Below are positions 26,056-64,000 of a stretch of DNA of 64,000 bases, piece after piece. A model generated the notes under the pieces. It saw only the letters and a program-made list of their open reading frames with translations. It was not told the DNA's origin and searched no databases. Positions within the stretch are counted from its first letter, which is position 1. The number at the start of each line of letters is the position of its first letter. The position numbers were made by a program, and so were the translations under genes. Source of the stretch: Methylococcaceae bacterium UBA2778 (GTDB lineage Bacteria > Pseudomonadota > Gammaproteobacteria > Methylococcales > UBA2778); NCBI GenBank assembly GCA_002352385.1, contig DEII01000052.1:5580-69579 (forward strand), read 5' to 3'.

Positions 26056-26070
26056 AGTAATCTCGCTTAG

Positions 26071-27555: not shown

Positions 27556-27612
27556 GGTTCATTTCATCTCCTTTCGATTGTAACAATCACTTCTGAATTA
27601 ATGATATATGAA

Positions 27613-28788: not shown

Positions 28789-28862
28789 AGTCCCACACCT
28801 TCTTTATCGCGGATCAGACTAGACTGCCTTTCCGCCCTTTGTTCCAATAATCGGAGAGAAAG

Positions 28863-29097: not shown

Positions 29098-29590
29098 GTC
29101 AGATTAGATCACACCGTCTGGAAAGAGTCAATTCCCTGCATTCATTTGCAGCGATTCGAAATGTGGCCTATTTTCCTCAATATATTGATCAAATTGAATT
29201 TGAAACCACAGTATATTGTGGTTGGACCGCTCACATTTAGAATTACTGATTCATTTGTGTTACAAGCTTATTTATTGTCGGGTTTTGTAGAAAATAACCT
29301 GTCTGGTTTGAAATGGGGCTACTATCTGATAAGCTTATCGATGAGTGAAGCTGCACCGAGGATAGATTGACAGCAGAATAGCTGCACCCTAAATGCCTTA
29401 GTAAAATACGGGTATTGTGGAAAATCCTAGAATCAATCACTATGGACTGAACATCCATAGTATGGGTTGCGACTCAAAGCCGCTCCCAAAAAAATGCGGT
29501 GTCGCTACGCGACGTTTATTGATTCGGAAAAAAATACTAAAGCCCTTCCACTGAAAGTGCATAGCTTTTACTAGCGGCCAGAAATAAAAA

Positions 29591-30823: not shown

Positions 30824-31165
30824 GGTTATTTCCTGGACTTGAAGCTTATAAGTTAGCGGAAATGCAAAAATACAGTCATTGTTTACATCCTACAAAAAAA
30901 AGAAACCAAATCAATCTGGTAATAAAACAATAGCGCCTCAACAAAGGCAACCATTTAGGCGTTGAAGCTCATAGGGCAATTAGCGGGAAAGTGCTTAGAG
31001 CCCTGCCGTTGCCAGCAACGCACGCCCGTTTGGGAACAGATAACACCACTCATGATTGAACACAGCCATCCTGTTGCTGTTCAGTAATAAAACATCCGAC
31101 TTCGTGTCGCAGTAACGTTGTAAATAACCGAGCTATATTGAGCGTCAGCGAAATACGCGCCCGAT

Positions 31166-31672
31166 TTATTTTTCCTTGTTATCCCTCTTCTTCATATAGT
31201 ATCTATAAGCGCTCTTTATGGTTCCGGGTCTTTCAGAAGATGAGGTTGCTTTTATTATTTCAGCTTTAATAACTCTGTTAAAACCAGCATCTTTATCAGC
31301 TGCATTTCGAAACCATGCTATCCATCCAAACCATCTAACAGCATGGTAAATTAACGTTTTCTTCCATTTGCTAACACCAAGAACACCCATAGCTTCTAGT
31401 AGAATTAAATCCGCTTCTTTTCTATCTCTTTTAACTTGTTCCCAATATAACCAATCATGTATTACTGCAGCGTTTCCATATTTTCCCCACCTTGGAATTA
31501 TCCACCAAAATACCCTTGGCACTGATGCAAAGTCGGTAGCAAAACCTTTAGAAGCAATAACACAATCACCGCTATTTTCAGTACCTACATGATACTTAAA
31601 GTCGTCAAGCACCACCCACGACTTACCGTCTGACAGCGGTGAAACAACTAAGGCTGTCGTAAATTCACTCAT
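31166..31672 (-). CDS. DUF1353-family protein
   Basis: KGFATDFASVPRVFWWIIPRWGKYGNAAVIHDWLYW matches the DUF1353 core (F.TD..S.P....G.....A..HD.LY) as I recall it. AT-rich. Confidence 0.7.
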   Translation of the reverse strand: MSEFTTALVVSPLSDGKSWVVLDDFKYHVGTENSGDCVIASKGFATDFASVPRVFWWIIPRWGKYGNAAVIHDWLYWEQVKRDRKEADLILLEAMGVLGVSKWKKTLIYHAVRWFGWIAWFRNAADKDAGFNRVIKAEIIKATSSSERPGTIKSAYRYYMKKRDNKEK

Positions 31673-31866
31673 AATGTTCTCCTTGTTGCACTACTCCAAA
31701 GGTAACATGCCCACAAAAGCGTAGTGTCGATAGGAACGTAGCTTTTGTGGGTCAGGTTGACCCGTTGGTTGAACGAGGCCGCTATCGCTGCGGAAAAGAA
31801 AACGGCATTTTTGCTAAACCTCAACCACGTGCTCAATTCGGAGCACAATGACATTTGGAGTTTATC

Positions 31867-31968
31867 ATGAATGCGACAGAACAAACCCGTTTCGATACGT
31901 TGTATAAGCGCCATCTTAGAGCCTTGACGCGCCAGGGTATGAGCGACAAGACGATAGATGGCTATGCG
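31867..31968 (+). pseudogene. N-terminal stub of a tyrosine recombinase of the kind often paired with IS91-family transposases
   Basis: Own translation: MNATEQTRFDTLYKRHLRALTRQGMSDKTIDGYA..., then unrelated sequence and a stop at 32023-32025. Only about 34 aa of the recalled N-terminal pattern (RF..LY..HL..L...G...KTI..Y) are present. Confidence 0.35.
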
Positions 31969-32255
31969 CTTATCGTTACCGTCTTCATCACGATCCCAAG
32001 AATTTGTGCTGCACACGGGCGCTGACATGATTCAATACTCTCCAAATCGGTCAGGAGAGCACCATATCCACAATCGGGCTACCCAAACAGATTTGCATCT
32101 AACCCCCTGCGGTCCTTGTATGCTGAATCCGGTGTGCCGTCCTCCTTTAACCGAGCTTAATCAAGCTCAAAAATCCCACACTTCATTAGGCCGCATTGTA
32201 AAAGGGTCCCGGAGATAGTCCGGGATAAGACACGTCTAAGCAAGGCCGATCCCCC

Positions 32256-48932: not shown

Positions 48933-49226
48933 CTATCTTCTGTAGTCGCCTTTGAGTGCTGGAAAGGTTCTCGGCTCGTTCCGGGGTGCATCGATATGCT
49001 CCCGGATGCCGAGGATGATACGGTCGAGGTCCTGTTTAAGCCATCCGTATCGGAAGCGAATCCGGGCATCGGGGTTGGCCCGGGCTTCCGCTTCGTTCAT
49101 CAGGGGATCGAGCGCCTCTAGTTCACGAACGAACTGCGCGAGCTTCGCCCGCTCGCCGCCGGCATCCGCGAATACCGGCCGCACCAGCACGACGGTCATG
49201 AACATCAGAACAAGGGTTTTCCGCAT
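48933..49226 (-). CDS. small secreted ICE protein (RAQPRD-family-like); first gene of this transfer block
   Basis: The start at 49226 gives MRKTLVLMFMTVVLVRPVFA. The C-terminal ...HIDAPRNEPRTFP resembles the family's name-giving motif region (recalled). Confidence 0.5.
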   Translation of the reverse strand: MRKTLVLMFMTVVLVRPVFADAGGERAKLAQFVRELEALDPLMNEAEARANPDARIRFRYGWLKQDLDRIILGIREHIDAPRNEPRTFPALKGDYRR

Positions 49227-49377
49227 CGAACACTCCACACAAATTACTCGAAGCGCATCATCGCCAATTTGGAAAACGGATGCCAGAAAAAACCGTATTT
49301 TGGTTTTGGACGGTTTTTACTGCTTCTTTAGGTGGGAGAAATGTTGGGCTTTGATCGGAGAGCATAGATTATGAAAT

Positions 49378-49403: not shown

Positions 49404-49529
49404 TCTTCGTTTCGTTTTACAGATACGTCTTGAAGATTGTAGCCATCACCGCACAAAAGGTAGTACCACCCGGTTAGGATGGCCACGAGTGGCATTGACA
49501 AATAAATATTTCTGTCGATACTGTTACAC

Positions 49530-50126
49530 ATGTTTGAGGGGGCAACGAAGACCGAGCTGGTCCTGGGACTCGCAAAGCAACTGGGATTACTTCGGGTCCG
49601 TGACCTTCCTTCACGGGGGATTCATCCGAAATACACGCCCCCGTTGTGCAAAAAAGTCCTGCTTACGCGCACTGGCCGCGGCCTTTCCATCGCGGCCGAT
49701 GGAGAGAGCTCGATCCATCACGGCTTGGCGCAAGCGTCCGAACGGGTGCCGCTCGGGGTAATCTGCCTGCTCTCTGCACTCCAGTTTCACAAGCTGGGCA
49801 CCCAGAGTCCCTTCAAAGCCTGGCTGGCTCTGGATCGCAGGGCGGCGCGGCGGCGTACTGGCTACTTGCCGCTACGCATCATGCACTTCTCCGGTGACGC
49901 GCTGACCGAAGGTATTGAGAAACATTTCATCGAAACTGTTCTAGCCAGGCTCTACTGCTCGGAAAAGACCATTGCGGATTGTTTCAAGTACCGCAACAAG
50001 ATTGGCCTTGATGTCGCACTGGAGGCACTGCGGGATTGTCGCGAAAAGAAGAAATGTAGAAATGATGATCTCTGGCGTTACGCTAAGGTCTGCCACGTGG
50101 CGAACGTTATTTGGCCCCCATGTTGA
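49530..50126 (+). CDS. AbiEi-family antitoxin/transcriptional regulator (type IV TA) with no cognate AbiEii gene
   Basis: ...PLGVICLLSALQFHKLGTQSPFKAWLAL...EKTIADCFKYRNKIGLDVALEALRDC... is the hallmark AbiEi_3-type pattern (recalled). The last residues, VIWPPC*, diverge at a C5 run (50115-50119). Confidence 0.75.
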   Translation: MFEGATKTELVLGLAKQLGLLRVRDLPSRGIHPKYTPPLCKKVLLTRTGRGLSIAADGESSIHHGLAQASERVPLGVICLLSALQFHKLGTQSPFKAWLALDRRAARRRTGYLPLRIMHFSGDALTEGIEKHFIETVLARLYCSEKTIADCFKYRNKIGLDVALEALRDCREKKKCRNDDLWRYAKVCHVANVIWPPC

Positions 50127-50176: not shown

Positions 50177-53100
50177 TTGAGCACAATGAGAGCCGACATA
50201 TTCAAATTACATTCCCTGATCGTGGGCGACTATCAGTCGTACATTCAGAGCTTTATCAACATCAATGACTCTGAAATACGCGAAATAGTCGAAAAAGAGC
50301 TGGACAAGGGGAAACTGTGGCCGAAACCGCTTATCCAGTTCAATCCAGCTTTTGCAGCCTATGGGGAGGTTACGGAACTCGTAGCTCAGGGGCTTCTAAA
50401 TGAACAATTGGTCAACGTTTTTCGCGACGACAAATCCGGTTCACCCTACAAGCTGTACAAGCATCAGGTGGATGCAATCCAACTGGGTAATAATGGAAAG
50501 GATTTTATCGTTACCTCTGGAACTGGCTCAGGCAAGACGCTCACATTTATAGGAACAGTCCTCAATCACCTGTTTGAGACAAAGAGCTTCAATTCCGGCA
50601 TTCAGGCTGTGCTTGTGTATCCAATGAACGCCTTGATCAACTCGCAAGTAGAAGAACTCGACAAATACGCACGGATATTTGAGGATCGCACGGGAAACCC
50701 ACTGCCGTTCCGCTACGCCGCCTACACTGGTCAGCTAAAGGAAGAGAAACGTGTACCATGGCGCGATAATCCGCCTGACCTGCTTCTGACCAACTACATG
50801 ATGCTTGAGTTGATCCTTACGCGGCATCGTGAGCATGCCCTGCGGGACTCAATTTATTCCAATTTGAAGTACCTTGTGTTCGATGAACTGCATACCTATC
50901 GAGGCCGCCAGGGGGCAGACGTTGGGGTCTTGATTCGCAGGATAAGATCTCGATGTGACCATAATCCAGTCTGTATTGGTACGTCTGCAACCATGGTTGC
51001 AGGTGGTGGCACCATCCAGGAGCAGAAAGCCGAGGTAGCGAAAGTAGCCAAAATAATATTCGGCAAGCCTTTCGAGTTAGATCAAATCGTTCAGGAAAAG
51101 CTGGAGCGATCTTTCTCTTCTAAACCCACTGTTCCTGAGAAAGACCTTCTTGCGGATGCCGTGAACTCAGGAATCAACTCTGATGCGAACGTTGAAACAC
51201 TGAAATCTCACCCGACGGCAATCTGGCTGGAGAACAAGATAGCGCTCCGTGAGAGCGACGGTGAACTCGTTCGTAATGTTCCACGCACATTTTTCGAGAT
51301 ATCCAGCCTGTTAAATAAGGAGAGCGGGCGTGAAGCGGAAATGTGCGCTCAGCATCTGACGGAACTGATGGAGTGGATAAACAAAGTCAACGAACGAAGT
51401 ACCGATCCGCGCTATACCTACCTCCCTTTCAAACTCCACCAGTTTTTTGCCCAGACCGGGTCCGTCTACACCTCGTTAGCGCTCGACGGGAAGCGGCATA
51501 TAACGCTGGAGCCTGGAGTCTATAAGGCAGACAGTGAAGGCAAAAATCAGCCGATTTTCCCTAACGTTTTTAGCAGAGAATCAGGTCATGCATTCCTTTG
51601 TGTGTATAAAAATGAAGAAAAAAAGCAACTGATACCAAGGGAGTTCCATGATCGCGACAGGGAAGGGAAAACATGCATCCCAGGATATCTCATCACGAAT
51701 GAGGATGTATGGGATCCTGAACGCGATTTGGAGTCTTTGCCGGATACCTGGTTGAAAAAAGGAAACATTGACAAGAAATATGCAAACCGTGTCCCGCAAT
51801 TGATCTCATTCAATGAATGGGGCTGCTATTCACACAACCGCTCTCTCGAATATAGAGGGTGGTTTATCCGTTTTCCGCTGCTGTTCGATCCTACCAGTGG
51901 CCGGTTTTTCGATCCGCAAACCAATGAGTCAACGAAGCTGACAAAGCTCGGCAGCGAGGGCAGAAGCACTTCCACAACCATCACAACCTTCTCAATCCTG
52001 ACGCGGCTGGCGGAAAAGGGGTTCGACCTCCAGGACCAGAAGCTTCTCAGCTTTACCGATAACCGCCAGGATGCCGCACTGCAAGCGGGACATTTCAATG
52101 ATTTCATCCAGGTCATCCAGTTGCGGTCGGCGATTCGCAAGGCGGTGGATGGCGCCACGGATGGTCAACTGACCTATAAGAACTTGGGTGACCAGATCTT
52201 TGAGGCGCTTTCGCTGGAGTTTCGGGAATATGCCAACTACAGAAGCGATATTAATGCGCCGCCTCCACCACCAGTACAACAAGCCTACAAGGAGGCATTG
52301 AAGAAATATCTTGTCTATCTGGCACTCTATGATCTCCGCCGGAGCTGGAGAGTTGTATTGCCCAATCTTGAACAGTGCGCTCTGCTCAAAATCGACTATG
52401 CGTACCTGGATGATATCGCCGACTGGAAGGAAGGATGGGCGTCGGTTCCATTGCTCGGTCAAATAGATGTCCGATCGCGGCGCGAATTGCTGTTTCAGAT
52501 GCTGGAATTCTTTCGCCTCGAATATGCTATCTACAGCGAGAATTATCTTACCGAAGAGCGTGTCAGGGGAAACAGAAAAGAGATCGAAGAAAAACTCATC
52601 GCACCCTGGAGATTCGAGTCACAGGACAAGATTGATCCCTATCACCTCCGCTACGATACCCTGGCGCCAAGAACCCGTTTGTATACCAGAAGTCTTGGCA
52701 TCACCAGCGCCTTCGGAAAATTCATTAAACAGCAAGGCAAGCAACGTAAAATCCAATTCAGCCGAGACAGTTATCGTGAGTTCCTGATTGCGCTTCTCAA
52801 TACCCTGGAGGCCGCTGACTACCTCAAATCAAGACAGGTCAGAAACAATAAGAACGAGGAAGTTAGAGTCTATCAATTAAAGCTGGACAAGATAATCTGG
52901 CTTCCAGGGAACCGAGAGACGGTCATCCCGGACGTCATAAAACAACGGGCATACAAGACGCTTAACCCCCAACCGAACGGGTATTTCCAGCAAGTCTACC
53001 TGCGAGACTTATCAAAATTGAAGAGGTTGATCGGTGGCGACCATACCGGCCAGCTTACCCATGACCAACGTATCGAAAGAGAAGAGAAATTTCGGGCCAA

Positions 53101-55354
53101 TTTCCGTAAGCCCGACGGTTCTTTGGACCGGGAAAAAGTCAAGCACGACTCCATCAGTGCACTGTTCTGTTCCCCGACCATGGAGCTGGGTATCGATATC
53201 CGCGAGCTCAGCGTGGTGCACATGCGCAACGCTCCTCCGAACCCGGCGAACTATGCGCAACGCAGTGGGCGTGCCGGCCGTAGCGGCCAAGCGGCGCTGG
53301 TATTCACCTACTGTTCGAGCTTTTCCAATCATGATCGCCACTATTTCCGCAAACAGCAGGATATGGTGTCGGGGACAGTGTTGCCGCCGAGAATAGACGT
53401 TTGCAATAAGGAGCTTCTGACCAGCCATCTTCACGCCGTTTTCCTTTCGGAAGTGGGTCTGAGTGGGCTTGATTTCTCCCTGCTCGACCTGGTCAGCGAG
53501 AATGAAGACGGTATGCCGTTGACCCAAGGCATTAATGATCAGTTGACCATTGATGCGGCGATCTTTGCCAGGATTCGTCACATATTTCAGAAGGTGGTGT
53601 CCGATTTCGAGACTGACCTACAGACTCAATCGAACGCATGGTTCAGCGATGAATGGATTGCCCAGTCGCTTAAGGGTATTGCCAAGCGACTCGATACCGC
53701 AATGGGCCGGTGGCGCACCCTCTACTGGCAAGCAAGGGCAACCCTCAAGCGGGCAACCCAAGAAATAGAAGCCGGGACTTATAGTCTGGGCAGCAAGGAA
53801 TACAAACAGGCCAAGCGTAGCCAGGATCAGGCCACTCGGCAACTGGATCTTTTGAAGAACAGTATCCAGGGCCGTGCCAACGAGCTCTCAGAGTTCTACC
53901 CCTACCGCTATCTCGCTTCCGAGGCCTTCCTGCCAGGCTATAACTTCACCCGGCTGCCGCTACGGACGTTCATTCCCGTCGGGGATGCCGGTGAATACAT
54001 ATCACGGCCAAGGTTCATTGCACTGCGCGAGTTCGGTCCCGGCAATGTCGTCTATTACAACGGCCAGAAATATGAGATCAAGCAGCTGATTGTGCAGGAC
54101 GCCGAGAACCAGCTCAAGGACGCCAAGATCAGTCTCAACGCGGGATACTTCCTGCAGGATGACCAGAAACAGCTCAGCCGGTGCCCGTTTACCCAAGTCG
54201 ATCTTTCAGAGAACAATCAGGTGGAGTACCTGCACGACCTCCTGGAAATGCCGGAGACCAAGGCCGTGCCACGGTCAAGGATTTCCTGCGAGGAGGAGGA
54301 ACGAATCAGCCGCGGGTTTCAGATAGAAACCTACTTCTCCGCACCGGACGGTGACATGCGGCGTGTCCGCAAGGCGACCCTGAAGAGCGATGCCGATGAA
54401 TTTCTGCATTTACATTTTATCCCCGCAGCCAATCTGGTCCAGGTCAACCGCAAATGGCGTAATTCGGAGAGGGAAGGGTTCACCTTGGGGTTGATGTCCG
54501 GATTCTGGAAGACTGGCAACCAGGAAGACCGGCCCGCCGACGCCGAAGAGATCCGCGACGTCAAACTATTTACCACCGACACCGCTGATGCCCTCTACAT
54601 CGAGCCGATTGAGCCACTGGGTCTGGAGCAGAATGGGGTCACCACCCTGCAGTATGCCCTGAAGCGTGCCATCGAGAATGTATTCCTGATAGAGCCCTCG
54701 GAGCTTGGTGTAGTCACCATGGGCAGGCAAGACCATCCCAATATCTTTCTCTACGAGGCCGCCGAGGGCAGCCTCGGGATTCTGTCCCAGTTCGCGGATA
54801 ACGTCGATGTTTTCCACAGGGTCATCGAGGAGGCGATCCGCCTGCTACGTTTTGACGACCTCGAATACAAAGAACCCGCTTCCTATGATGACCTGCTGAG
54901 TTACTACAACCAGCGCGACCATACGGTCATAGATCGATTCTTGATCCAGGATGCCCTTGAAAAGCTCCGCATCTGTAAGCTGGAGCGTCACACCGGTACG
55001 AGTTTCACGGGGTACGATGCGCAATATGGAACATTGCGAAGGCAGATCGATCCCAACTCCAGCACCGAATTGAAGTTCCTGGAATACCTGTACCAGAACA
55101 ATCTCAGGCTGCCCGATGCCGCGCAGAAAACGGTGGATGGCATCTATGTGCAACCCGACTTTTTCTATGAAACCGATATCTGGGTCTTTTGCGATGGAAC
55201 ACCTCACGACAAACCTGACGTCAGAGCCGACGATGAGGTTAAACGAGATGCGATCCGCAACAAACGGGGTGACCAAGTGTTCGTGTATTACTACAAGGAC
55301 GATCTCGCCGAGATTATCCAGAAGCGTTCGGACATCTTCACCAAGGTGCGCTGA
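50177..55354 (+). CDS. 1,725-aa DEAD/DEAH helicase + DUF1998 + C-terminal Vsr/DUF559-like nuclease-fold domain (DISARM DrmA/DrmB-like fusion)
   Basis: Motif I is SGTGSGKT (aa 114-121) and motif II is VFDELH. The helicase-C region is SPTMELGIDIRELSVVHMRNAPPNPANYAQRSGRAGRSG. The DUF1998-like region is RFIALREFGPGNVVYYNGQKYEI...FLYEAAEGSLGIL. The C-terminus reads YVQPDFFYETDIWVFCDGTPHDKP. The start is TTG 50177 or ATG 50186. Confidence 0.8.
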   Translation: MSTMRADIFKLHSLIVGDYQSYIQSFININDSEIREIVEKELDKGKLWPKPLIQFNPAFAAYGEVTELVAQGLLNEQLVNVFRDDKSGSPYKLYKHQVDAIQLGNNGKDFIVTSGTGSGKTLTFIGTVLNHLFETKSFNSGIQAVLVYPMNALINSQVEELDKYARIFEDRTGNPLPFRYAAYTGQLKEEKRVPWRDNPPDLLLTNYMMLELILTRHREHALRDSIYSNLKYLVFDELHTYRGRQGADVGVLIRRIRSRCDHNPVCIGTSATMVAGGGTIQEQKAEVAKVAKIIFGKPFELDQIVQEKLERSFSSKPTVPEKDLLADAVNSGINSDANVETLKSHPTAIWLENKIALRESDGELVRNVPRTFFEISSLLNKESGREAEMCAQHLTELMEWINKVNERSTDPRYTYLPFKLHQFFAQTGSVYTSLALDGKRHITLEPGVYKADSEGKNQPIFPNVFSRESGHAFLCVYKNEEKKQLIPREFHDRDREGKTCIPGYLITNEDVWDPERDLESLPDTWLKKGNIDKKYANRVPQLISFNEWGCYSHNRSLEYRGWFIRFPLLFDPTSGRFFDPQTNESTKLTKLGSEGRSTSTTITTFSILTRLAEKGFDLQDQKLLSFTDNRQDAALQAGHFNDFIQVIQLRSAIRKAVDGATDGQLTYKNLGDQIFEALSLEFREYANYRSDINAPPPPPVQQAYKEALKKYLVYLALYDLRRSWRVVLPNLEQCALLKIDYAYLDDIADWKEGWASVPLLGQIDVRSRRELLFQMLEFFRLEYAIYSENYLTEERVRGNRKEIEEKLIAPWRFESQDKIDPYHLRYDTLAPRTRLYTRSLGITSAFGKFIKQQGKQRKIQFSRDSYREFLIALLNTLEAADYLKSRQVRNNKNEEVRVYQLKLDKIIWLPGNRETVIPDVIKQRAYKTLNPQPNGYFQQVYLRDLSKLKRLIGGDHTGQLTHDQRIEREEKFRANFRKPDGSLDREKVKHDSISALFCSPTMELGIDIRELSVVHMRNAPPNPANYAQRSGRAGRSGQAALVFTYCSSFSNHDRHYFRKQQDMVSGTVLPPRIDVCNKELLTSHLHAVFLSEVGLSGLDFSLLDLVSENEDGMPLTQGINDQLTIDAAIFARIRHIFQKVVSDFETDLQTQSNAWFSDEWIAQSLKGIAKRLDTAMGRWRTLYWQARATLKRATQEIEAGTYSLGSKEYKQAKRSQDQATRQLDLLKNSIQGRANELSEFYPYRYLASEAFLPGYNFTRLPLRTFIPVGDAGEYISRPRFIALREFGPGNVVYYNGQKYEIKQLIVQDAENQLKDAKISLNAGYFLQDDQKQLSRCPFTQVDLSENNQVEYLHDLLEMPETKAVPRSRISCEEEERISRGFQIETYFSAPDGDMRRVRKATLKSDADEFLHLHFIPAANLVQVNRKWRNSEREGFTLGLMSGFWKTGNQEDRPADAEEIRDVKLFTTDTADALYIEPIEPLGLEQNGVTTLQYALKRAIENVFLIEPSELGVVTMGRQDHPNIFLYEAAEGSLGILSQFADNVDVFHRVIEEAIRLLRFDDLEYKEPASYDDLLSYYNQRDHTVIDRFLIQDALEKLRICKLERHTGTSFTGYDAQYGTLRRQIDPNSSTELKFLEYLYQNNLRLPDAAQKTVDGIYVQPDFFYETDIWVFCDGTPHDKPDVRADDEVKRDAIRNKRGDQVFVYYYKDDLAEIIQKRSDIFTKVR

Positions 55355-55356
55355 CC

Positions 55357-58206
55357 ATGGCCTATAGCCCCGGAACATTGGTGACCTTACGGGAACGTGA
55401 CTGGGTGGTTATGCCATCCGGCGATCCAGAGCTGTTGCTTCTGAAGCCATTGGGAGGCTCAGAAGAGGAAACCACGGGTATTTTCCTCCCGTTTGGCTTC
55501 GGTGACGATCACCCCCGGCTTGCCAATTTTCCATTACCTACAGCCGACGACATTGGGGACATAACCACCGCACGCTTGCTCCATGAAGCCACTCGGCTGG
55601 CGTTCCGAAATGGCGCCGGCCCCTTCCGGAGTCTCGCCAAGCTCTCTTTTCGTCCACGATCCTATCAGATGGTGCCCCTCATCATGGCTCTGCGCCAGGA
55701 AGTGGTCCGGCTGTTGATTGCTGATGACGTCGGCGTCGGAAAAACGATTGAAGCACTCCTCATCATCAAGGAAATGCTGGAACGTCGGCAGATCGAGCGG
55801 TTCGCGGTTGTCTGCCTGCCGCATCTATGCGATCAGTGGCAAGAGGAGATCAAGGACAAGCTGGGAATCGAAGCGGTGGTCATCCGCTCGAACACCCAAG
55901 CGCGTCTGGACCGTGAGATCCAAGGCGATATCAGCGTCTATCAGTATTATCCCTACCAGATCATCTCGATAGACTTCATCAAGTCAGAGACCCGACGCGA
56001 GGTTTTCATCAATGAGTGTCCGAGGATGGTAGTGGTTGATGAGGCGCATGCCTGCGCCCGACCAGCGGGCGCATCCAGGGCACAACAGCAGCGCTATGCC
56101 TTGATTCATGATATCGCGTCCAAACCCGACCAGCATTTGGTCATGTTGACGGCCACCCCGCACAGCGGCAAGCCGGAGGAATTCCACTCCCTTCTGGGAC
56201 TTCTGCGACCGGAGTTTGAAACCCTGGACCTTCCTAACTCCAGCCAGCAGGAGCGGCGTGTCCTCGCCCGACACTTTGTCCAGCGCCGCCGTGCCGATGT
56301 TGAGAAATGGATGGGTGAAGACACGCCATTTCCCAACCGGGATCCGGGTGAATTCGACTACCCTCTCTCACCGAAGTACGCGGCATTTTTTGATCGCATC
56401 TTCGAATTCACGCGCAAGCTGGTTGCAGGGGGAGGGCCGGAAAATGATGGCGGGCAACACTTTCGTTACTGGACAGCGCTGGGCTTGCTCCGCGGCGTGA
56501 TGTCGAGTCCGGCGGCCGGTGTCGAGATGTTGGAGAACCGCATTCGCAATCTGCCGGGTGATGGACAGTCACTGATCGAACTGGCGGCCGACAATCCGGT
56601 ACATGACGTCGATTACGGTTATGACAGTGATCTGCCGCCGGCGGAGCTGGTAGAACTTGGCGCCTGGACTGAATACCAGCGCAGGCAATTGCGGACCTTC
56701 GCCGGGGACTTGGGACAACTGGGCAATACCGAGGATGACCTCAAGCTTGCCACCGCGGAGCTTATCCTGGACGACTGGCTCGGGGACGGTTTTAATGCCG
56801 TGGTGTTCTGCAAATACATTCCAACGGCCAAATATGTGGGCGAACAGCTTGGCCCACACCTGAAGGAGAAATATCCAAAACTCAATCTACAGGTGATAAC
56901 CAGCGAGGATCCCGATGACATGCGCCGCCAGCGCATCGAGGCGATGGAATCGTCCAGACACCGCGTACTCATCGCTACGGATTGCCTGAGCGAAGGCATC
57001 AATCTGCAGGACTACTTTACGGCAGTGCTCCACTACGACCTGCCCTGGAATCCCAACCGGCTGGAACAGCGAGAGGGCCGGGTCGATCGCTTCGGACAGA
57101 CCGCGAAGGAGGTCAAAGCCTATCTGCTCTATGGCACGGACAATCCCATCGACGGTGTGGTGTTGGATGTCATCCTGCGCAAGGTGCGTGAAATCCGCCG
57201 GGCGACGGGCATCAATATTCCCTTTCCGGAAGACAGTAAGAGCATTATCGATACCATCACCCAGGCACTGCTTCTCAAGCCGAACCGGAAAATCACGCCC
57301 CATCGTCTGGAAAACCGACAGATTGAAATGGATTTCGGGGAATTCGATGAGGCCCGGGAAATCAAGCTGGAGGCGAGTGACAAGCTGGACCGCGCCGCCG
57401 AGCGTGAAAAGGTCTCTCGCAGCATCTTCGCCCAGAACGCTATCAAGGCCCACGAGATCGAGGCGGATCTGAAAGAGACAGATGAGGCCATTGGCAATCC
57501 CCGGGCCGTGGAAGACTTCGTGACCAGTGCGCTGCCCATCCTGCTGGGCGTACAGATAGAAGAAACGAATAAAGGCTATAAGCTCTACACCAACAACCTG
57601 CCGCGCCTGCTGGCCGACCTTCTGCCGCAGAAGCCGGAACTGCTGATCAGCTTCGAATCGCCGACCCCGCAGGAACACCTATACATGGGCCGTAACCATC
57701 CGTTTGTCGAAAATCTCTGCCAGCAGATCATGGCCAATACCATCAACCGAACCGGAAAGCGTGCGTCCCGTGCAGCCGTCATCCGCACGGATGCGGTTGA
57801 GATCAAGACAACCATCCTGCTGTTCCGGGTACGCAACGTCATTGAGGAGAAAAGAAAGTCCCATCAACTTGTGGCCGAGGAAATGCTCCTGTGGGGTTAC
57901 CAGGCTGCGGCCGCGGATCAGGACTTTTTCGGCCCCGATGAGGCCAAGATACTGTTGTTAAATTCCCGGCCGACGGCCAACCGCTCACCCGAGGCCAATG
58001 CCGCTACGCTGGAATATGAGCTTATGCAACTCGATGCCTTGAAAGCAGATTTCGATCAGGTCGCCGAACAGCGTGCCAGGCACCTGGTCGAGGCTCACGA
58101 GAGGTTTGGCCAATTTGTCGAGAAAAAGCGTTACCAGGTTGTCTATCCAGTACTGCCGATGGACGTGCTCGGGGTCTATGTCCTGTTGCCTGGCGGTCAG
58201 GCATGA
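55357..58206 (+). CDS. drmD: SNF2-family helicase (DISARM DrmD-like)
   Basis: LIADDVGVGKTIEA (motif I), VVVDEAHACA (motif II), MLTATPHSGK, and the helicase-C region LIATDCLSEGINLQDYFTAVLHYDLPWNPNRLEQREGRVDRFGQ. It starts 2 nt after the upstream stop. Confidence 0.75.
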   Translation: MAYSPGTLVTLRERDWVVMPSGDPELLLLKPLGGSEEETTGIFLPFGFGDDHPRLANFPLPTADDIGDITTARLLHEATRLAFRNGAGPFRSLAKLSFRPRSYQMVPLIMALRQEVVRLLIADDVGVGKTIEALLIIKEMLERRQIERFAVVCLPHLCDQWQEEIKDKLGIEAVVIRSNTQARLDREIQGDISVYQYYPYQIISIDFIKSETRREVFINECPRMVVVDEAHACARPAGASRAQQQRYALIHDIASKPDQHLVMLTATPHSGKPEEFHSLLGLLRPEFETLDLPNSSQQERRVLARHFVQRRRADVEKWMGEDTPFPNRDPGEFDYPLSPKYAAFFDRIFEFTRKLVAGGGPENDGGQHFRYWTALGLLRGVMSSPAAGVEMLENRIRNLPGDGQSLIELAADNPVHDVDYGYDSDLPPAELVELGAWTEYQRRQLRTFAGDLGQLGNTEDDLKLATAELILDDWLGDGFNAVVFCKYIPTAKYVGEQLGPHLKEKYPKLNLQVITSEDPDDMRRQRIEAMESSRHRVLIATDCLSEGINLQDYFTAVLHYDLPWNPNRLEQREGRVDRFGQTAKEVKAYLLYGTDNPIDGVVLDVILRKVREIRRATGINIPFPEDSKSIIDTITQALLLKPNRKITPHRLENRQIEMDFGEFDEAREIKLEASDKLDRAAEREKVSRSIFAQNAIKAHEIEADLKETDEAIGNPRAVEDFVTSALPILLGVQIEETNKGYKLYTNNLPRLLADLLPQKPELLISFESPTPQEHLYMGRNHPFVENLCQQIMANTINRTGKRASRAAVIRTDAVEIKTTILLFRVRNVIEEKRKSHQLVAEEMLLWGYQAAAADQDFFGPDEAKILLLNSRPTANRSPEANAATLEYELMQLDALKADFDQVAEQRARHLVEAHERFGQFVEKKRYQVVYPVLPMDVLGVYVLLPGGQA

Positions 58207-61200
58207 TCTTTCCCTCCATCCGTATCGAAGGCGCCATTCTCTCCGGAGACATCCTCGACGCCATTGAGCGCGGGGGAAAATCTTTCCAGACGGCGAAAGA
58301 CTTCGGCCTCGATCCCACGGGCAAGGTCAAGGACGAGATCGCCGAAGCGTGGGCCGCGGCGCGCGCCTACTGGGCGGCCTATCAGACCCGGCTCGAACGT
58401 CTGCGCGAAGGCGCCACCGGCACCACCGAAACCCGCAACCTGTGGATGACCCCACTGCTTGGCCTGCTCGGATACCAGTCGGAACTGGCTGGGCGCGGCG
58501 AGGTGGTGCAGCGCAAGAACTTCGCCATCTCCCACCGCGACCTGTCAAGGAACGGTTTCCCCATCCACATCATGGGCTGGAACGACAGCCTGGATAAGAA
58601 GCGTACCGACTCCGGCCCGCGCATGTCGCCTCATGCCCTGGTGCAGGAATACCTGAATCTCACCGAGCACCTTTATGCGCTGGTGACCAATGGCCGGCTG
58701 TTGCGCCTGCTGCGCGACAGCTCGCGCCTGATCAAGCTCAGTTTCATCGAGTTCGATCTGGAACGCATGTTAACCGAGGAACTCTACGCCGATTTCGCCA
58801 TCCTCTACCGCCTGCTGCACGCCTCGCGGATGCCGGTGAAGCAGGAGGCCGCCAACGAGAGCATCATCGAGACCTACCACCAGGACGCCCTCGATTCCGG
58901 CTCGCGTATCCGTGATGGCCTGAGCAACGCCGTGGAGCAATCCATCCTGCAGCTCGCCAATGGGTTTCTTGCCAACAGCGCCAACGAGGCCCTGCGTGAA
59001 GCCATCGCCGGGGGAGAGTCCAATGCCAGGGACTTTTATCAGTCGCTGCTGCGGCTAATCTATCGCCTGCTGTTCCTGATGGTCATCGAGGAACGGGACC
59101 TGGTCTATCCGCGCAAGGCCGACCGGCGCCTGCGCGACATCTATTACAAGCATTACAGCATTCAGCGTCTGCGCAAGCTTTCGGAAAAGCGCCACTTCGC
59201 CGATCGCAACTACCAGGACGCCTGGACCGGCCTCAAGGCCACCTTCCGTCTGTTTGAGGATGCCAGATACGGCGGGAAGCTCGGCATCGCGCCGCTGGCC
59301 GGTGATCTGTTCGATACCGGCGCCATTGGCATGCTGAGCGACTGTCGTCTGGACAATGCCGTGCTGCTTACCTGCCTGCGCAACCTGAGCCTGTTCCATA
59401 ACCCGGTCACCAAACAACTCATGCGGGTCAACTACGCGGCGCTCAATGTCGAGGAGTTCGGCTCCGTTTACGAGGGCCTATTGGAATACGACCCGCAAAT
59501 CCTGGAAATCGATGACCGGTTCGAGTTTCGGTTCGTCAAGGGCGAGGGACGTTCCACTTCCGGTTCCCATTACACGCCGGATGAACTGGTGCAGCCGCTG
59601 ATCAAACATTCACTGGACTACATCATCGCCGACAGGCTGAAGCAGGCCGAGCCGGAAAAAGCGCTGCTCGGTATCACCGTCTGCGATGTCGCCTGCGGCT
59701 CCGGCCATATTCTGCTCAACGCCGCCCGACGCATCGCCACTGAACTGACCGTCCTGCGTACCGGCGAGGACCAGCCCTCTCCCGCCGCTTTCCGTGAGAC
59801 CGTACGGGATGTTATCCGGCACTGCGTCTATGGAGTGGACATCAATCCACTGGCGGTGGAACTGTGCAAGGTCGCTCTGTGGCTGGAGGCCCACAACCCC
59901 GGCGAGCCGCTCAACTTTCTAGATCACCACATCAAGTGTGGCAACGCCATCGTCGGGCTTGCGCGCGAGGACGAGTTGGAGCGGGGTATTGCGGACGAGG
60001 CCTTCAAGACCTTGCCGGATGACGATAAGGAAATCGCCGCAGGACTGCGCAGAAAGAACAAGGAAGAGCGCAAGGGTGCGCAGCAATTGAACTGGGAGGA
60101 TGTGTGCGTCGCGGAAATGCCGGCGCTCCATCGGCAGCTGGCCGAAATCCAACGACTGCCGGAATCGACTCCGGAGGAGGTCCAGAGCAAACAGCGGCGC
60201 TATCGGAACTACCTACACAGCTATCACCGGGAGCATCTGAAAACGCTGGCCAACCTCAAGGTGGCGCAGTTTTTTATTCCGAAGCGGGAGGAGACCCTGA
60301 AAGGGATCACCACGCACGATCAGTATCGCGGTTATCTGAGCGGAGGCGTGGTGTTGTCAGAGGCTGCGGCGATGGCGCGGGAAATGGCGGATGAGAAACG
60401 GTTTTTTCACTGGTTTTTGGAGTTTCCGGAGGTATTTGAGAAAGGCGGGTTTGATTGTATTCTCGGGAACCCACCTTACTTAGGGGACAAAAAATTACGT
60501 TCGGCATTTGGTGCCAGCTTTGTCAACTATGTGAACACCGCGTACATACCTGGCAGCGCTTGTGACCTAATTACTTATTTCCTTCGTCGTGACTTCGACA
60601 TCCTAAAAGGCGACGGTTTCTTTTCCTTAATCACGACCAACTCAGTGTCAGAGGGCGCAACTCGAAAATGTGGGTTGCACCATATTATGGATAAGGGTGG
60701 CGAAATCAACTTTGCGGTTGATTCTGCGCCGTGGCCGGGAGCGGCCGCAGTCATTATCTCTCTGATCGCGCTTTACAAAGGACAATGGTACGGAGAACGG
60801 CTTATTGCAAACCACAAAGTTCCGTTTATCAGCTCATTCATTGACGACAGTGTTATTAAGGGCGATCCAAAGATTCTTCAATCGAATGAGGGCCTCAGTT
60901 TCATTGGTAATTACGTTCTTGGTAATGGATTTCTCCTAGACCAGACTGAAGCACAAGGGTTGCGAAATATGGATTCTCGTCATGCTGAAGTCGTCGTCAA
61001 GTATCTTATCGGAGATGACTTAAATACCGATCACCTTCAGCGGGCGTCGCGATACGTAATTAACTTGGGGACGGCTCCGATACAGCGTATTGACAGGAGC
61101 GTGTGGGAGAGCGCCACTCGTAAAGAACAGCGCCAATTTTTGAGTTCTGGGCTTTGTGATCCAGATTACGAGGGACTGCTTGCACCGGACTTCGGGCGGC

Positions 61201-62084
61201 CGTTTCAGATACTAGAGGAACGCGTTAAGCTGGTGCGTGAGAAGTGCGCGGACCGAGCGGCACGTCAGAAATGGTGGCAGCACGCTCGAACTCGTCCAGA
61301 TCTTTATGCAGCCATAAACGGACAGAGTCGTGTCCTCGTGCATACGCGGCATACCAAAACGCACGCATTTACATTTGTTGAGAATGATCAAGTTTTTTCC
61401 GACGCGCTCGTTGTAATCGCCCGCGACGACTGGCATTCTTTCGGCGTTTTGCAATCTTCAATGCACGAGTTTTGGGCTTGGCAATATGCTTCGACCCTTA
61501 AAACAGACCGTCGCTACTCGCCAACGCAGTGTTTTGAAACTTTCCCGTTTCCTTTACCTGGGAGGTCATCAGACGATGTAATGGTCAAGGGCAAGACCTA
61601 CCACAAACGCCGCCGCCACCTCATGCTCAAGATGCAGTTGGGCCTCACCAAGACCTACAACCTGTTCCACGACCCGAACCTTTCGCCCGAAACCGTAGAA
61701 AAGGCTAGCAAGCAAAGCGCCGACATCGCCGCCGAGGCGTACCGGGACATTCTCAAACTCCGCGACCTGCACCGCCAGATGGACGAGGCCGTACTCGCCG
61801 CCTATGACTGGCACGAAAACAATGAAAAATGGGGTCCCGCCATCGAACTGCGCCACGACTTCTACGAAGTCGACTACCTGCCGGAAAACGACCGCATCCG
61901 CTACACCATTCACCCCGACGCTCGCAAGGAAGTCCTCAAGCGCCTTCTACTCCTCAACCACGAACGCTACCAAGAAGAAGTCAAACAGGGCCTGCACGAC
62001 AAGAAAAACAAAAAGAAGCGCAGCGGAAAACCGGTGCTCGTGTCTGTTCAAGCGGATCTATTCGCAGGGCAAGCGCAAAAATGA
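58203..62084 (+). CDS. drmMI: 1,293-aa Eco57I-type gamma-class N6-adenine DNA methyltransferase (DISARM DrmMI-like)
   Basis: Motif I is VCDVACGSGHILLNAARRI and motif IV is CILGNPPYLGDKK. There are large N- and C-terminal extensions. The start shares an ATGA overlap with the upstream gene. Confidence 0.8.
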   Translation: MIFPSIRIEGAILSGDILDAIERGGKSFQTAKDFGLDPTGKVKDEIAEAWAAARAYWAAYQTRLERLREGATGTTETRNLWMTPLLGLLGYQSELAGRGEVVQRKNFAISHRDLSRNGFPIHIMGWNDSLDKKRTDSGPRMSPHALVQEYLNLTEHLYALVTNGRLLRLLRDSSRLIKLSFIEFDLERMLTEELYADFAILYRLLHASRMPVKQEAANESIIETYHQDALDSGSRIRDGLSNAVEQSILQLANGFLANSANEALREAIAGGESNARDFYQSLLRLIYRLLFLMVIEERDLVYPRKADRRLRDIYYKHYSIQRLRKLSEKRHFADRNYQDAWTGLKATFRLFEDARYGGKLGIAPLAGDLFDTGAIGMLSDCRLDNAVLLTCLRNLSLFHNPVTKQLMRVNYAALNVEEFGSVYEGLLEYDPQILEIDDRFEFRFVKGEGRSTSGSHYTPDELVQPLIKHSLDYIIADRLKQAEPEKALLGITVCDVACGSGHILLNAARRIATELTVLRTGEDQPSPAAFRETVRDVIRHCVYGVDINPLAVELCKVALWLEAHNPGEPLNFLDHHIKCGNAIVGLAREDELERGIADEAFKTLPDDDKEIAAGLRRKNKEERKGAQQLNWEDVCVAEMPALHRQLAEIQRLPESTPEEVQSKQRRYRNYLHSYHREHLKTLANLKVAQFFIPKREETLKGITTHDQYRGYLSGGVVLSEAAAMAREMADEKRFFHWFLEFPEVFEKGGFDCILGNPPYLGDKKLRSAFGASFVNYVNTAYIPGSACDLITYFLRRDFDILKGDGFFSLITTNSVSEGATRKCGLHHIMDKGGEINFAVDSAPWPGAAAVIISLIALYKGQWYGERLIANHKVPFISSFIDDSVIKGDPKILQSNEGLSFIGNYVLGNGFLLDQTEAQGLRNMDSRHAEVVVKYLIGDDLNTDHLQRASRYVINLGTAPIQRIDRSVWESATRKEQRQFLSSGLCDPDYEGLLAPDFGRPFQILEERVKLVREKCADRAARQKWWQHARTRPDLYAAINGQSRVLVHTRHTKTHAFTFVENDQVFSDALVVIARDDWHSFGVLQSSMHEFWAWQYASTLKTDRRYSPTQCFETFPFPLPGRSSDDVMVKGKTYHKRRRHLMLKMQLGLTKTYNLFHDPNLSPETVEKASKQSADIAAEAYRDILKLRDLHRQMDEAVLAAYDWHENNEKWGPAIELRHDFYEVDYLPENDRIRYTIHPDARKEVLKRLLLLNHERYQEEVKQGLHDKKNKKKRSGKPVLVSVQADLFAGQAQK

Positions 62085-62413
62085 GGCGCTGGGCGCGGCA
62101 ATGCTTCAAGGCGGAGCCGATGAATGTGGACGCCGCAATCGCGATAATGAGGCGGCCCAACCGGGCGGGTTGGGACCCATGCAGCCAAACAGATTGCATT
62201 TTTGGTCATGACTGCCCGGAACTCGAAGCCCTCTCCGGGAACGACGGCGTGTTCGACGTGCTCGACCCCGCAGTCCGCAAGAAATCCATCCAGGCGCTGC
62301 CCTTCGTGACGCATTGCTGCACAATGGAGGCGTGTGTCGGATACCTGTGTAAAAGTAGAGCGGGTCAATTCAGGCAAAAGGGCACTGGCGTCTGTCCGAG
62401 GCTGTTTGCATGA
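62081..62413 (+). CDS. possible 110-aa Cys-rich protein (uncertain; the region could instead be non-coding)
   Basis: ATG 62081 overlaps the methylase stop as ATGA, and its own stop overlaps the next ATG as ATGA. The product, MRRWARQCFKAEPMNVDAAIAIM...CSQTDCIFGHDC...THCCTMEACVGYLC..., has 9 Cys. The frame is also open far upstream inside the methylase gene, which is a warning sign for chance ORFs in GC-rich DNA. Confidence 0.35.
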   Translation: MRRWARQCFKAEPMNVDAAIAIMRRPNRAGWDPCSQTDCIFGHDCPELEALSGNDGVFDVLDPAVRKKSIQALPFVTHCCTMEACVGYLCKSRAGQFRQKGTGVCPRLFA

Positions 62414-63375
62414 GAAGCGGCGACGAAAGACTTCTGAACCCGGCAGATTTACCGTCCAGCCTGTGGGATGCCGGATCAAAGATACTTAGTTTGCCGCCTG
62501 CTTTGGCGCGGGCATACGAGACGCTCATCGACCGGCATGGACCGCGGGCTCTTGCCAATAGCCGAGATCGAGACGATTCGCCCGTGGGTGGCCTTACTCA
62601 GGAAAAAACCGACGAACATTTCGCCCAAGCCTTCGATGGTTCTGCAGCGCGAGCACAACTTGCCATGCTCGACCCTAAAAAGGACGCGACTGCAGCGTCA
62701 AATGCCTATATTAAAAGCCTTGCTGGAAATCGGTTGAGCCTGACCGACGCGCCTTGCGGGGCGGGAGCGGCAGCGCTCGCGTTTTTGGCGAATGCGGCCG
62801 CATTACGTGCGAGCGGTGTTTTACCTCGGGAACCATTGGATGTTTATCTGATCGGTGCAGAACTTTCGGAACCGGCCAGAGTTTATGCGGAAGAGCTTCT
62901 GGCAGAACTTACGCCATCATTGGAGGCGCAAGGAATCTTTGTGGCAGCAGAATTTGTCTTTTGGGATGTCACGGATGACCTCAGAAATACCGATCTTATT
63001 CGAAAAATGACGCTTGCGGCAGCAAGCAATCCAAATCGCTTGCTTGTTGTTGCTAACTTCAACGCATTCCTTGAGAAAGAGGCGAAAAAAAAGGATGCAG
63101 AACCTCAGCTTGCAGAGTTATTTCGTCACGCATCGGGTAAGCAGAGTGTTGTAGTGTGGATTGAACCAGATATGAATCGGGCTGTCTGTAGCTTGTTTCC
63201 CTGGCTTTGTAAAATGATAAAGGGCGCTTGGAGGCGTTTTGCTACTGTGACGATGAACATCGACGACCCTATTGCAACATCCCACGCACGATTCCATCTG
63301 CCGCTAAACCCTGACCAGACTGCGAGGGTGGGATTCGCAGTGATGCCGATCGAGCTCGTGCGCAGCAGCAAATGA
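62410..63375 (+). CDS. 321-aa methyltransferase-like protein with intact motif I and a degenerate motif IV
   Basis: LSLTDAPCGAGAAALAFL resembles the D.PCG.G..L SAM-binding motif I of N6-MTases. About 100 aa downstream, where (N/D)PP(Y/F) is expected, the sequence is LLVVANFNAF. ATGA overlaps at both ends. Confidence 0.5.
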   Translation: MRSGDERLLNPADLPSSLWDAGSKILSLPPALARAYETLIDRHGPRALANSRDRDDSPVGGLTQEKTDEHFAQAFDGSAARAQLAMLDPKKDATAASNAYIKSLAGNRLSLTDAPCGAGAAALAFLANAAALRASGVLPREPLDVYLIGAELSEPARVYAEELLAELTPSLEAQGIFVAAEFVFWDVTDDLRNTDLIRKMTLAAASNPNRLLVVANFNAFLEKEAKKKDAEPQLAELFRHASGKQSVVVWIEPDMNRAVCSLFPWLCKMIKGAWRRFATVTMNIDDPIATSHARFHLPLNPDQTARVGFAVMPIELVRSSK

Positions 63376-64000
63376 AACGCTCGCGTCCCGGCATCCTCTC
63401 TGTGCGCACGGTCAATCAATACCGCCGTCGCGACGTCCTGACTTACCTCGGACTGCGTTACTACCTGGAGAATACTGCCGCCCGCACCGACCAATGGGCG
63501 AGAGAGGTGGCAACGCATCTGGTGATGACGCGGAGTGATCCACCGTACTTCCGTGCGCTGCATTTCAAGGAGAGCACCCAAGAGGGCCAAATTGAGTATC
63601 GTCCTATCTTTCTTCCGGGTGCCAACGAGGCATTGGCGGAAGCGGCTCTGCTCGACGAGTGCGCCAAGCATCGTGCATTTGTAAATCCAGACTGCGTGTT
63701 CAGTTATCACCTGTGTTGTGGACAGGATCGGAACGGTGTTTATCAGCCCTATTTCGGAGGTCTTCAACGCCGACATCAAGCCATAGCAGAGGCTTGCGAT
63801 CGCTATCCTGGCGGGCAGGTTCTGTATATCGACATAAAGCGGTTCTACCCATCGATCCCTGTGAAACTTGCGATTGACGCCTGGAGGAAGCACGCCGAGT
63901 CTGCTGATTTCAGCGCGAAATGGCGCGACCTCGGCGAACATCTCATTCAGCAACATGCCAAAGTTGCCGAGCGTGACGGCAAAGGCATCCTTACCGGTCC
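63372..64000 (+). CDS. reverse transcriptase (Abi/UG/DRT-like), N-terminal 209 aa only; continues beyond the window
   Basis: Own translation: MKRSRPGILSVRTVNQYRRRD.... RT motif 1-like is EYRPIFLPGANEALAEAALL, motif A is VLYIDIKRFYPSI, and motif B-like is GKGILTGP at the window edge. The order and spacing fit the RT palm/fingers. The YxDD box would lie beyond 64000. Confidence 0.7.
   Translation, partial: MKRSRPGILSVRTVNQYRRRDVLTYLGLRYYLENTAARTDQWAREVATHLVMTRSDPPYFRALHFKESTQEGQIEYRPIFLPGANEALAEAALLDECAKHRAFVNPDCVFSYHLCCGQDRNGVYQPYFGGLQRRHQAIAEACDRYPGGQVLYIDIKRFYPSIPVKLAIDAWRKHAESADFSAKWRDLGEHLIQQHAKVAERDGKGILTG

Follow-up and report, generated by a model that had tools for sequence, protein, structure and literature searches.

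The 3' part of the stretch of DNA analysed here, which comprises 64,000 nucleotides (nt) of contig DEII01000052.1 of Methylococcaceae bacterium UBA2778 and is called the window below, carries three restriction-like genes followed by a methyltransferase-like gene and a reverse transcriptase (RT) gene. This locus raises the question of whether an RT has become part of a restriction-like machine or whether two defence systems have been placed one behind the other in a single transcription unit. Both readings had been offered in the original prediction, which was made from the sequence. Our results suggest that the array probably consists of two separate and known anti-phage modules, ARMADA type I and UG36, which are stacked head to tail and co-transcribed in the cargo of an ICEclc/PFL-type element. 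The pairing is rare and is probably a case of simple stacking. Both modules belong to described families, and their combination was not found to be reported in the literature searched.

According to the list of open reading frames (ORFs) and their translations, all ORFs of the array are on the + strand. The locus of the window is referred to as WIN and other loci as L001 and so on, of which L123 is a public contig identical to the window. The features of the array are as follows.

50186..55354, + strand: armC, encoding a YprA/DruE-like DEAD/DExH helicase with an MZB (DUF1998) domain and a C-terminal Vsr-like motif (Pfam, PADLOC)
55352-55359, + strand: gap of 2 nt (TGAccATG) between the armC stop at 55354 and the armA start at 55357
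55357..58206, + strand: armA, encoding an SNF2/BrxHII/DrmD-like helicase of 949 amino acid residues (Pfam SNF2-rel_dom and Helicase_C)
58203..62084, + strand: armB, encoding a PglX/MmeI/DrmMI-like N6-adenine DNA methyltransferase of 1293 residues with a target-recognition domain
58203-58206, 62081-62084, 62410-62413 and 63372-63375, + strand: four ATGA stop/start overlaps
62085..62409, + strand: spacer of 325 nt with an orphan ORF of 110 residues that runs from 62081 or 62120 to 62413
62410..63375, + strand: gene for the UG36-associated methyltransferase-fold protein (MT) of 321 residues, recognized by its fold and its conservation beside the RT
63372..64000, + strand: UG36 RT gene, cut at the window end after the first 209 of 580 residues; it would end at about 65114

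The two modules were rarely found together, regardless of the side from which they were surveyed. A scan of one genome per species yielded 41 UG36 loci other than that of the window, and homologues of both ArmA and ArmB were upstream of UG36 in 3 of them, which are from Acidithiobacillus ferriphilus (L003), a member of Competibacteraceae (L004) and a member of Methylococcales (L013). The ARMADA survey covered the 80 closest ArmB relatives in metagenomes and one plasmid. The order armC-armA-armB was retained in all 81 of these loci, and neither an MT nor an RT gene followed armB in any of the 66 for which 1.5 kb or more of downstream sequence was available. Thus, the co-occurrence of this RT clade with DrmD/DrmMI homologues, which the original prediction had proposed as a check, is rare from both sides. 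The same prediction would have been given up if the RT clade and the DISARM-like genes never occurred together elsewhere; they do occur together in the three loci named, via independent joins. Moreover, a DNA similarity search with positions 50177-64000 returned no match in Escherichia coli and one plasmid match, which was to an ARMADA locus without an RT, and a tblastn search of plasmids with the RT found nothing.

The phylogeny of the UG36 modules also points to repeated joining. In a tree of concatenated MT and RT sequences, the modules of the window, L003 and L013 fell in three separate clades with bootstrap values of 86–100, and in none of 200 bootstrap replicates did the ARMADA-linked modules form a single clade. 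Their nearest UG36 relatives adjoin type I, type III-like or type IIG systems, or no defence system. The identities between ArmB of the window and ArmB of UG36-free loci were 68, 64 and 60%, and those to UG36-linked loci were 47, 48 and 33%. In addition, other genes are found between the two modules: a PIN-domain gene and a small ORF, which together resemble a VapBC pair, separate armB from the MT gene in L004, and a DUF2326 gene separates them in L003. Because the ARMADA-linked UG36 modules are in separate, well-supported clades, the ARMADA-UG36 join arose independently at least three times. Many UG36 loci are preceded by a divergent or unrelated gene, such as one for a chemoreceptor or an integrase or genes on the opposite strand. 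Of the two readings of the original prediction, stacking in one transcription unit thus fits, whereas an obligate composite is contradicted by the absence of UG36 from the 66 ARMADA I loci and by its presence beside unrelated neighbours.

The assignment of the first three genes to ARMADA is based on profile matches and gene order. For ArmC, the Pfam matches to DEAD (83.7 bits), Helicase_C (40.1 bits) and MZB (27.8 bits) were all over the cut-offs, and its PADLOC scores were 272 bits for DruE3 and 256 bits for DruE1 versus 35.7 bits for DrmA, which is a comparison of profile scores and not a phylogeny. The C-terminal motif E..PDF..FCDGxxHD was invariant in 25 homologues. The C-terminus had no match in Pfam, a profile search of the Protein Data Bank was uninformative and a single-sequence AlphaFold2 model was poor, with a predicted local distance difference test (pLDDT) of 46; it is the conserved motif that points to a putative Vsr-like nuclease. 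ArmA matched the PADLOC profiles DpdE (570 bits), DrmD (278 bits) and BrxHII as well as the NCBIfam profiles DISARM_DrmD (302 bits, under the cut-off of 610) and RapA (109 bits). ArmB matched Eco57I, MmeI_Mtase and MmeI_TRD of Pfam and DrmMI (748 bits) and PglX of PADLOC, and its translation carries the NPPY and CGSG motifs. The catalytic motifs of the array, with the RT completed from L123, are all intact. The original prediction started the first gene at a TTG at 50177; the ATG at 50186 is most likely the start codon, giving a protein of 1722 residues as in the gene call on L123.

ARMADA type I was described as a YprA homologue with a C-terminal Vsr-type nuclease, followed by a BrxHII-like helicase and then a PglX-like methyltransferase, without ArmD (Bell et al., 2025, bioRxiv 10.1101/2025.09.15.676423). 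The window has the same order of YprA-like, SNF2 and methyltransferase genes; it has no GajB-like ArmD, and no UvrD/GajB-like gene follows. Thus, judged by their sequences, the trio and its gene order match ARMADA type I. The genes had previously been called DISARM-like, which is imprecise. Membership of DISARM class 1 was considered and rejected because the separate DrmB and the phospholipase D (PLD) protein DrmC are missing, a single gene with fused helicase and MZB domains being present instead, and because the DrmD match is under the NCBIfam cut-off.

The last two genes are the UG36 pair that was already described. Mestre et al. (2022, PMC9226505) reported UG36 as an RT with a separate methylase-domain gene and, on the basis of individual loci, predicted a defensive role for it. 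The RT part in the window matched the PADLOC profile RT_UG36 with 266.6 bits (E 1.3e-79; profile positions 3-199 of 557), and the match of the RT to RVT_1, with 24.5 bits, was under the cut-off. The original prediction called for the sequence past 64000, and the identical contig L123 supplies it: the completed RT has 580 residues and a YVDD motif beyond the window end and is followed by an intergenic region of 460 nt. The MT protein had no match in Pfam or NCBIfam and matched weakly the N-terminal part of the RT_UG35 profile of PADLOC. Its AlphaFold2 model, with a pLDDT of 95.6, has the Rossmann fold of class I S-adenosylmethionine (SAM)-dependent methyltransferases, for which the structural neighbours were generic only (rRNA and tRNA methyltransferases and DOT1, template modelling score ≤0.5). 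The residues D113-x-P-x-G-x-G and E151 are conserved. The protein has 296 homologues, and the exact protein of 321 residues is present on public contigs. Thus, the fold with its conserved SAM-binding motif is what bears out the earlier label "methyltransferase-like", and the model supports a predicted SAM-methyltransferase-fold partner of the UG36 RT. The MT-RT pair was retained in about 39 of the 41 UG36 loci, with an overlap of 4 nt in 23 of 34.

A retron was also considered and rejected: no Rfam retron family was found in the window or in positions 9500-13375 of L123, and the RT matches the UG36 profile, not a retron profile. An Rfam scan of the window gave no gathering-level match, and a comparison of the DNA upstream and downstream of UG36 modules for a conserved non-coding RNA or flanking element found nothing shared beyond close relatives.

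Several variants of the UG36 locus were observed. On the + strand of L123, positions 12862-12937 (about 65271-65346 in window numbering) match domain V/VI of group II introns (RF00029) with 38.8 bits (gathering threshold 40; E 2.6e-5). The match starts 157 nt past the stop codon of the RT; neither the 5' part of an intron nor an intron-type ORF is evident, and similar DNA is absent from the other UG36 loci compared. The next gene, at position 13168 of L123, opens with a GHKL-ATPase-like ELIQNAHDA motif. In L013, the MT-like and RT parts form one ORF of 902 residues (6696-9404), which is either a natural fusion as in UG25/UG35 or a sequencing error in a metagenome-assembled genome. In cyanobacterial UG36 loci, an RNase_T/DEDD exonuclease gene lies 11–26 nt past the RT (L018, 11770-12480; L020, 11752-12432; L027, 11742-12422; L029, about 11755-12459) and may be a lineage-specific third component of UG36. 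Finally, a DinG-like helicase gene overlaps the start of the MT-like gene by 4 nt in L001 (7015-9045) and L129 (5482-7659), the UG36 modules of which are sisters (bootstrap 100); DinG, MT and RT may form a three-gene variant that recalls the UvrD partner of UG35.

How the two modules are connected depends on the junctions. The junction coordinates and the gene order of the original prediction, with one gap of 2 nt and four ATGA overlaps, were recovered exactly. The ATGA tetranucleotide occurs 264 times in the window, so a single overlap has little weight, whereas a run of overlaps at ORF ends does count. The description as a tightly coupled operon is correct with regard to the shared strand and the coordinates; two of the four overlaps, however, depend on the ORF at 62081-62413, which is not conserved. 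Its only homologue among 5.8 billion protein clusters was itself, and none was found in about 125 related loci. Its codon score was 0.02–0.04, which is at the bottom of the range, compared with 0.32 ± 0.13 for real genes of the window. The gene caller begins this ORF at 62120 on L123.

The DNA of the orphan ORF and its frame-0 translation align colinearly with residues ~1180-1250 of ArmB from about 44 loci, a region that reads ...HDFYEV..LPENDR.RYTI.P.ARKEVLKRLL.LNH.... The best blastp score against ArmB was 34.7 bits, compared with ≤28.9 bits in 1000 shuffles, and 44 subjects scored ≥27 bits, compared with ≤2 in any shuffle. With nhmmer, the score was 21.5 bits versus ≤16.2 bits in 100 codon shuffles. 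A profile hidden Markov model (HMM) of full-length ArmB ranked the sequence best of 2005 controls (2000 shuffles and five other frames) with only 1.1 bits, and a model of the ArmB C-terminus placed it at rank 4 only, which is weak. The end of the ORF, ...RLFA*, resembles ArmB tails that end in ...[DGS]LF(x)*. It is therefore very likely that the orphan ORF is a degenerate relic of the 3' end of an older armB, a wording kept short of certainty because the profile HMM tests were weak and the claim rests on the blastp and nhmmer shuffles.

Because the ORF is unconserved and ArmB-like, armB and the MT gene are linked by a relic spacer of 325 nt, and a translational chain between them is unproven. 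Two of the four ATGA overlaps belong to this decayed fragment, so that coupled translation from ARMADA into UG36 is not established. As the spacer appears to be the decayed tail of an earlier armB, UG36 would already have been joined, stop codon to start codon, to an armB when the present armCAB arrived: the stop codon of the earlier armB would have overlapped the start of the MT gene, as it does in L013 today, and the present armCAB allele would have been placed upstream later. A blastx search for armB relics ahead of other UG36 modules found one in the lineage of the window alone, and the similarity of L127 to the relic was marginal. The ...DLFA* tail that recurs before the MT start may be a ribosome-binding site and spacer read in another frame.

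Neither a promoter-like site nor a + strand terminator-like site was found in the spacer at 62085-62409 (a weak test), which makes co-transcription of ARMADA and UG36 plausible. The junction is no assembly artefact, because the same arrangement is present on an independent assembly, L123, which matches the window with 100% identity along 11,591 nt and in which the armB-relic-MT-RT junction recurs with the genes on either side, and because a third sample has the relic-MT-RT stretch with a single mismatch in 3407 nt.

In other ARMADA I loci, the sequence 3' of armB is highly variable and its genes are mostly co-directional. A DUF2326 (LmuB/SMC-like) gene lies directly 3' of armB, often overlapping it, in 19 of the 81 ARMADA I loci, for example at 15973-17943 of L042 (plasmid NZ_LR699555.1) and 6980-8956 of L003, with 17 further ARMADA loci; such a gene could be a common fourth member of a type I subtype that has gone unreported. 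Inserts are also present between armA and armB. A gene for 470–560 residues with Schlafen AlbA_2, HATPase_c_4 and C-terminal Fic-like domains (L003, 1142-2755; L036, 5405-6097; also L001, L017, L033 and about 10 ARMADA loci, among them L049, L055, L063 and L066) is inserted there in many ARMADA I loci. It was also found between hsdR and hsdM in one type I locus and adjoins UG36 in three loci, and it thus resembles a further mobile accessory gene of restriction-like operons.

We propose the following working model for the stacked array. ArmB would methylate the host DNA at its recognition sites and thereby mark self, and ArmC, with its YprA-like helicase and Vsr-like nuclease, would act with the SNF2 protein ArmA to translocate on and cut unmethylated incoming DNA. 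This part we infer from the relationship to DISARM and BREX and from the published experiments with ARMADA type II, which is reported to confer direct, non-abortive defence and to show synergy with a co-directional Druantia III neighbour in E. coli (Bell et al., 2025, 10.1101/2025.09.15.676423). UG36 would sit immediately 3' of armB, in the variable position that other co-directional accessory genes take in other ARMADA I loci, and would probably be transcribed by read-through from the ARMADA promoter. Its SAM-methyltransferase-fold protein would be translationally coupled to the UG/Abi-type RT, and DNA synthesis triggered by infection would lead to growth arrest, probably abortive. The two modules would most likely defend independently, with an additive or possibly synergistic effect.

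The most serious alternative arises from the neighbours of UG36 in other genomes. A restriction-like operon with a DNA methyltransferase was directly upstream and co-directional in about 13 of 41 UG36 loci with informative upstream sequence, the window included. The upstream systems are listed below.

ARMADA: WIN, L003, L004 and L013
Type I restriction-modification: L015, L036, L037 and L126, the last three with junctions of 0 to -4 nt
BREX-1: L028 and L032
Type IIG methyltransferase and SNF2-HKD helicase: L017
SNF2, N6_N4 methyltransferase and Res: L125
Type III Mod, UvrD and then DinG: L001

The remaining UG36 loci have Gabija/Shedu, Mza, GmrSD/HNH/DinG or HicAB genes, or genes unrelated to defence, as neighbours. 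Where at least 5 kb was available on each side (23 loci), N6_Mtase/Eco57I was found in 5 upstream genes, to which L125 adds an N6_N4 methyltransferase, and no DNA methyltransferase was found downstream in these loci, either among the top 25 Pfam families listed or with methyltransferase seeds. Likewise, no methyltransferase-containing restriction-like operon was found downstream of UG36. The asymmetry of 6 versus 0 gives ~0.03 in a two-sided sign test with a small sample. These counts cover UG36 loci only, and restriction-modification genes are the commonest defence genes. The pattern may reflect functional coupling, with UG36 as a guard or back-up, or a promoter-less cassette that needs constitutive read-through from an operon. 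It is suggestive and not proven, because the sample is small, the family list is limited to the top 25, restriction-modification genes are so frequent among defence genes and the UG36 loci had no matched comparison modules.

If the coupling is functional, UG36 could depend, as a 3' rider or guard, on restriction systems that work by methylation and could move between them (ARMADA, type I, type III-like, IIG and BREX), always downstream and co-directional, an explanation that we regard as possible and distinctly less likely than stacking. UG36 might then be a second line that fires once anti-restriction proteins, for instance, have inhibited or overwhelmed the partner, or its MT-like subunit might read or mimic the methylation state, and the armB relic would be the fossil of one partner exchange; these versions are equally tentative. 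A model for a guard is the PrrC anticodon nuclease, which is held by the EcoprrI type I enzyme. The upstream position of the methyltransferase-containing operons argues for such dependence, as does the clade of the UG36 module in the window (60–65% identity), the partners of which span ARMADA, type I and type III-like systems. The synergy of ARMADA II with its co-directional neighbour in E. coli and the relic, as an indication that the link lasted across an ARMADA swap, point in the same direction. However, the partner systems have no single protein in common, about two thirds of the UG36 loci have no restriction-like neighbour, and the 66 ARMADA I loci have no UG36. Given the abundance of restriction-modification genes, some adjacency is expected. 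The sample is small, and the one-sidedness could also come from a promoter-less cassette that depends on read-through.

Several points nevertheless weigh against simple stacking as favoured here. From random stacking, a looser and less one-sided upstream linkage would be predicted than the one observed, the junctions of the linked loci often being 0 to -4 nt. ARMADA I is not a common system, yet at least three joins to it took place, and the relic, if read correctly, shows that the linkage outlasted an exchange of the ARMADA genes. Moreover, the action of UG36 in the stacking model is drawn entirely from analogy with other UG/Abi RTs.

It is improbable that the adjacency is meaningless, with the two halves not co-transcribed and UG36 transcribed from its own promoter in the relic spacer after landing in a cargo hotspot of the integrative and conjugative element (ICE). 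UG36 modules of the L003/L017 clade do carry about 54 nt of shared upstream DNA, maybe their own 5' region, into different contexts; UG36 also adjoins Gabija/Shedu, Mza and HicAB genes, and the region beside the RAQPRD block is cargo. Nevertheless, the spacer showed no promoter-like site in the weak test mentioned above, and the junctions of 0 to -4 nt in L001, L013, L036, L037, L126 and L129 leave no room for a promoter.

An obligate composite, in which ARMADA and UG36 form one machine and each half needs the other, scarcely deserves credence despite the shared strand, the close spacing, the formal ATGA overlaps and the occurrence of the combination in three other genomes, and is ruled out because co-occurrence is rare both ways (0 of 66 close ARMADA I loci with UG36; of 41 other UG36 loci, 3 with ARMADA and 37 recorded as lacking it), the UG36 modules beside ARMADA are polyphyletic, and a toxin-antitoxin pair (L004) or a DUF2326 gene (L003) lies between the halves, the junction in the window itself being a decayed gene fragment.

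The stacked array is preceded by the following features.

48933-49238, - strand: RAQPRD-family gene (TIGR01690, 78.8 bits)
49495..49522, + strand: promoter-like site TTGACA-16-GATACT, 10 of 12 positions matching the consensus, the sole + strand sigma-70-like match ahead of the array
49530..50126, + strand: AbiEi-like gene of 198 residues (PADLOC AbiEi, E 1.9e-64, full length)

The promoter-like site, which precedes the AbiEi-like gene, is a consensus match only, and the array region has fewer promoter-like sites than shuffled sequence. The AbiEi-like gene is intact, lacks an AbiEii partner and ends 50–59 nt before armC, depending on the choice of the armC start codon. It is possibly the first gene of the array or a regulator, and its origin may be an orphan antitoxin that now serves in regulation or a displaced AbiE system of which it is the remnant. 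The array is about 300 nt from a divergently oriented type IV secretion system (T4SS) block of a PFL_47xx/ICEclc-type element, in which the RAQPRD-family gene leads and is followed by genes of the TIGR03745, 03750, 03746, 03749 and 03752 families and TraC. None of the six frames of the window contains the RAQPRD peptide itself, though the family HMM matches. The earlier placement beside T4SS genes of an ICE is thus sound and is consistent with a cargo position. Elsewhere in the element, the GC content at 24000-32000 was 0.43–0.47, compared with 0.50–0.60 in the flanks, which suggests another foreign insert.

Descriptions of the two modules are recent, and the locus, as an intact example of both on a conjugative element, is suited to experiments. 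Of more use is the finding that the RT module occurs repeatedly, and in the same orientation, at the tail of very different restriction-like operons across 40-odd genomes. If this pattern is functional, an RT-based back-up would be wired to restriction-modification, which would give a concrete starting point for the mechanism of UG36. If it reflects only a dependence on read-through, it would show that promoter-less defence cassettes spread via the accessory slots of larger operons.

In the literature searched, no RT linked to ARMADA or DISARM genes has been described, in agreement with the original prediction, which knew of no such chain; the one-sided association of UG36 with restriction operons and the armB relic were not reported there, and no published phage assays were found for ARMADA type I or UG36, type II being the sole ARMADA type with such assays. 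Similar to ARMADA type I (Bell et al., 2025, 10.1101/2025.09.15.676423), the array has the same three genes in the same order, has no ArmD and is on a mobile element; different from it, the array adds the UG36 pair and the armB relic at the 3' end and the AbiEi-like gene at the 5' end. ArmC is most similar to the DruE profiles of Druantia (272 bits); DruA-D, DruH and DruM partners, however, are absent, and the C-terminal nuclease motif is Vsr-like instead of PLD, following Bell et al. With DISARM class 1 (DrmD, DrmMI, DrmA, DrmB and DrmC), the window shares a DrmD-like SNF2 helicase, a DrmMI-like adenine methyltransferase and a DUF1998 helicase. It is not a member, as it has no separate DrmB and no PLD DrmC, and its big helicase scores as DruE and not as DrmA. 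In the EcoprrI type Ic locus, a restriction-modification operon likewise includes a module of the abortive type, the PrrC anticodon nuclease. UG36 has no sequence relationship to PrrC, and a functional link would exist, by analogy, only if UG36 is a guard. The UG36 of Mestre et al. (2022, PMC9226505) has the same RT profile and a separate upstream methylase-like gene; no link to ARMADA, DISARM or restriction-modification operons was made there, whereas the pair in the window is appended to such an operon. Finally, although MT and RT of the window are separate genes and the partners UvrD (UG35) and DUF1848 (UG25) are absent, the window resembles the methylase-RT fusions UG25 and UG35 (Mestre et al., 2022) in that a methylase-like domain is N-terminal to, or upstream of, a UG/Abi RT.

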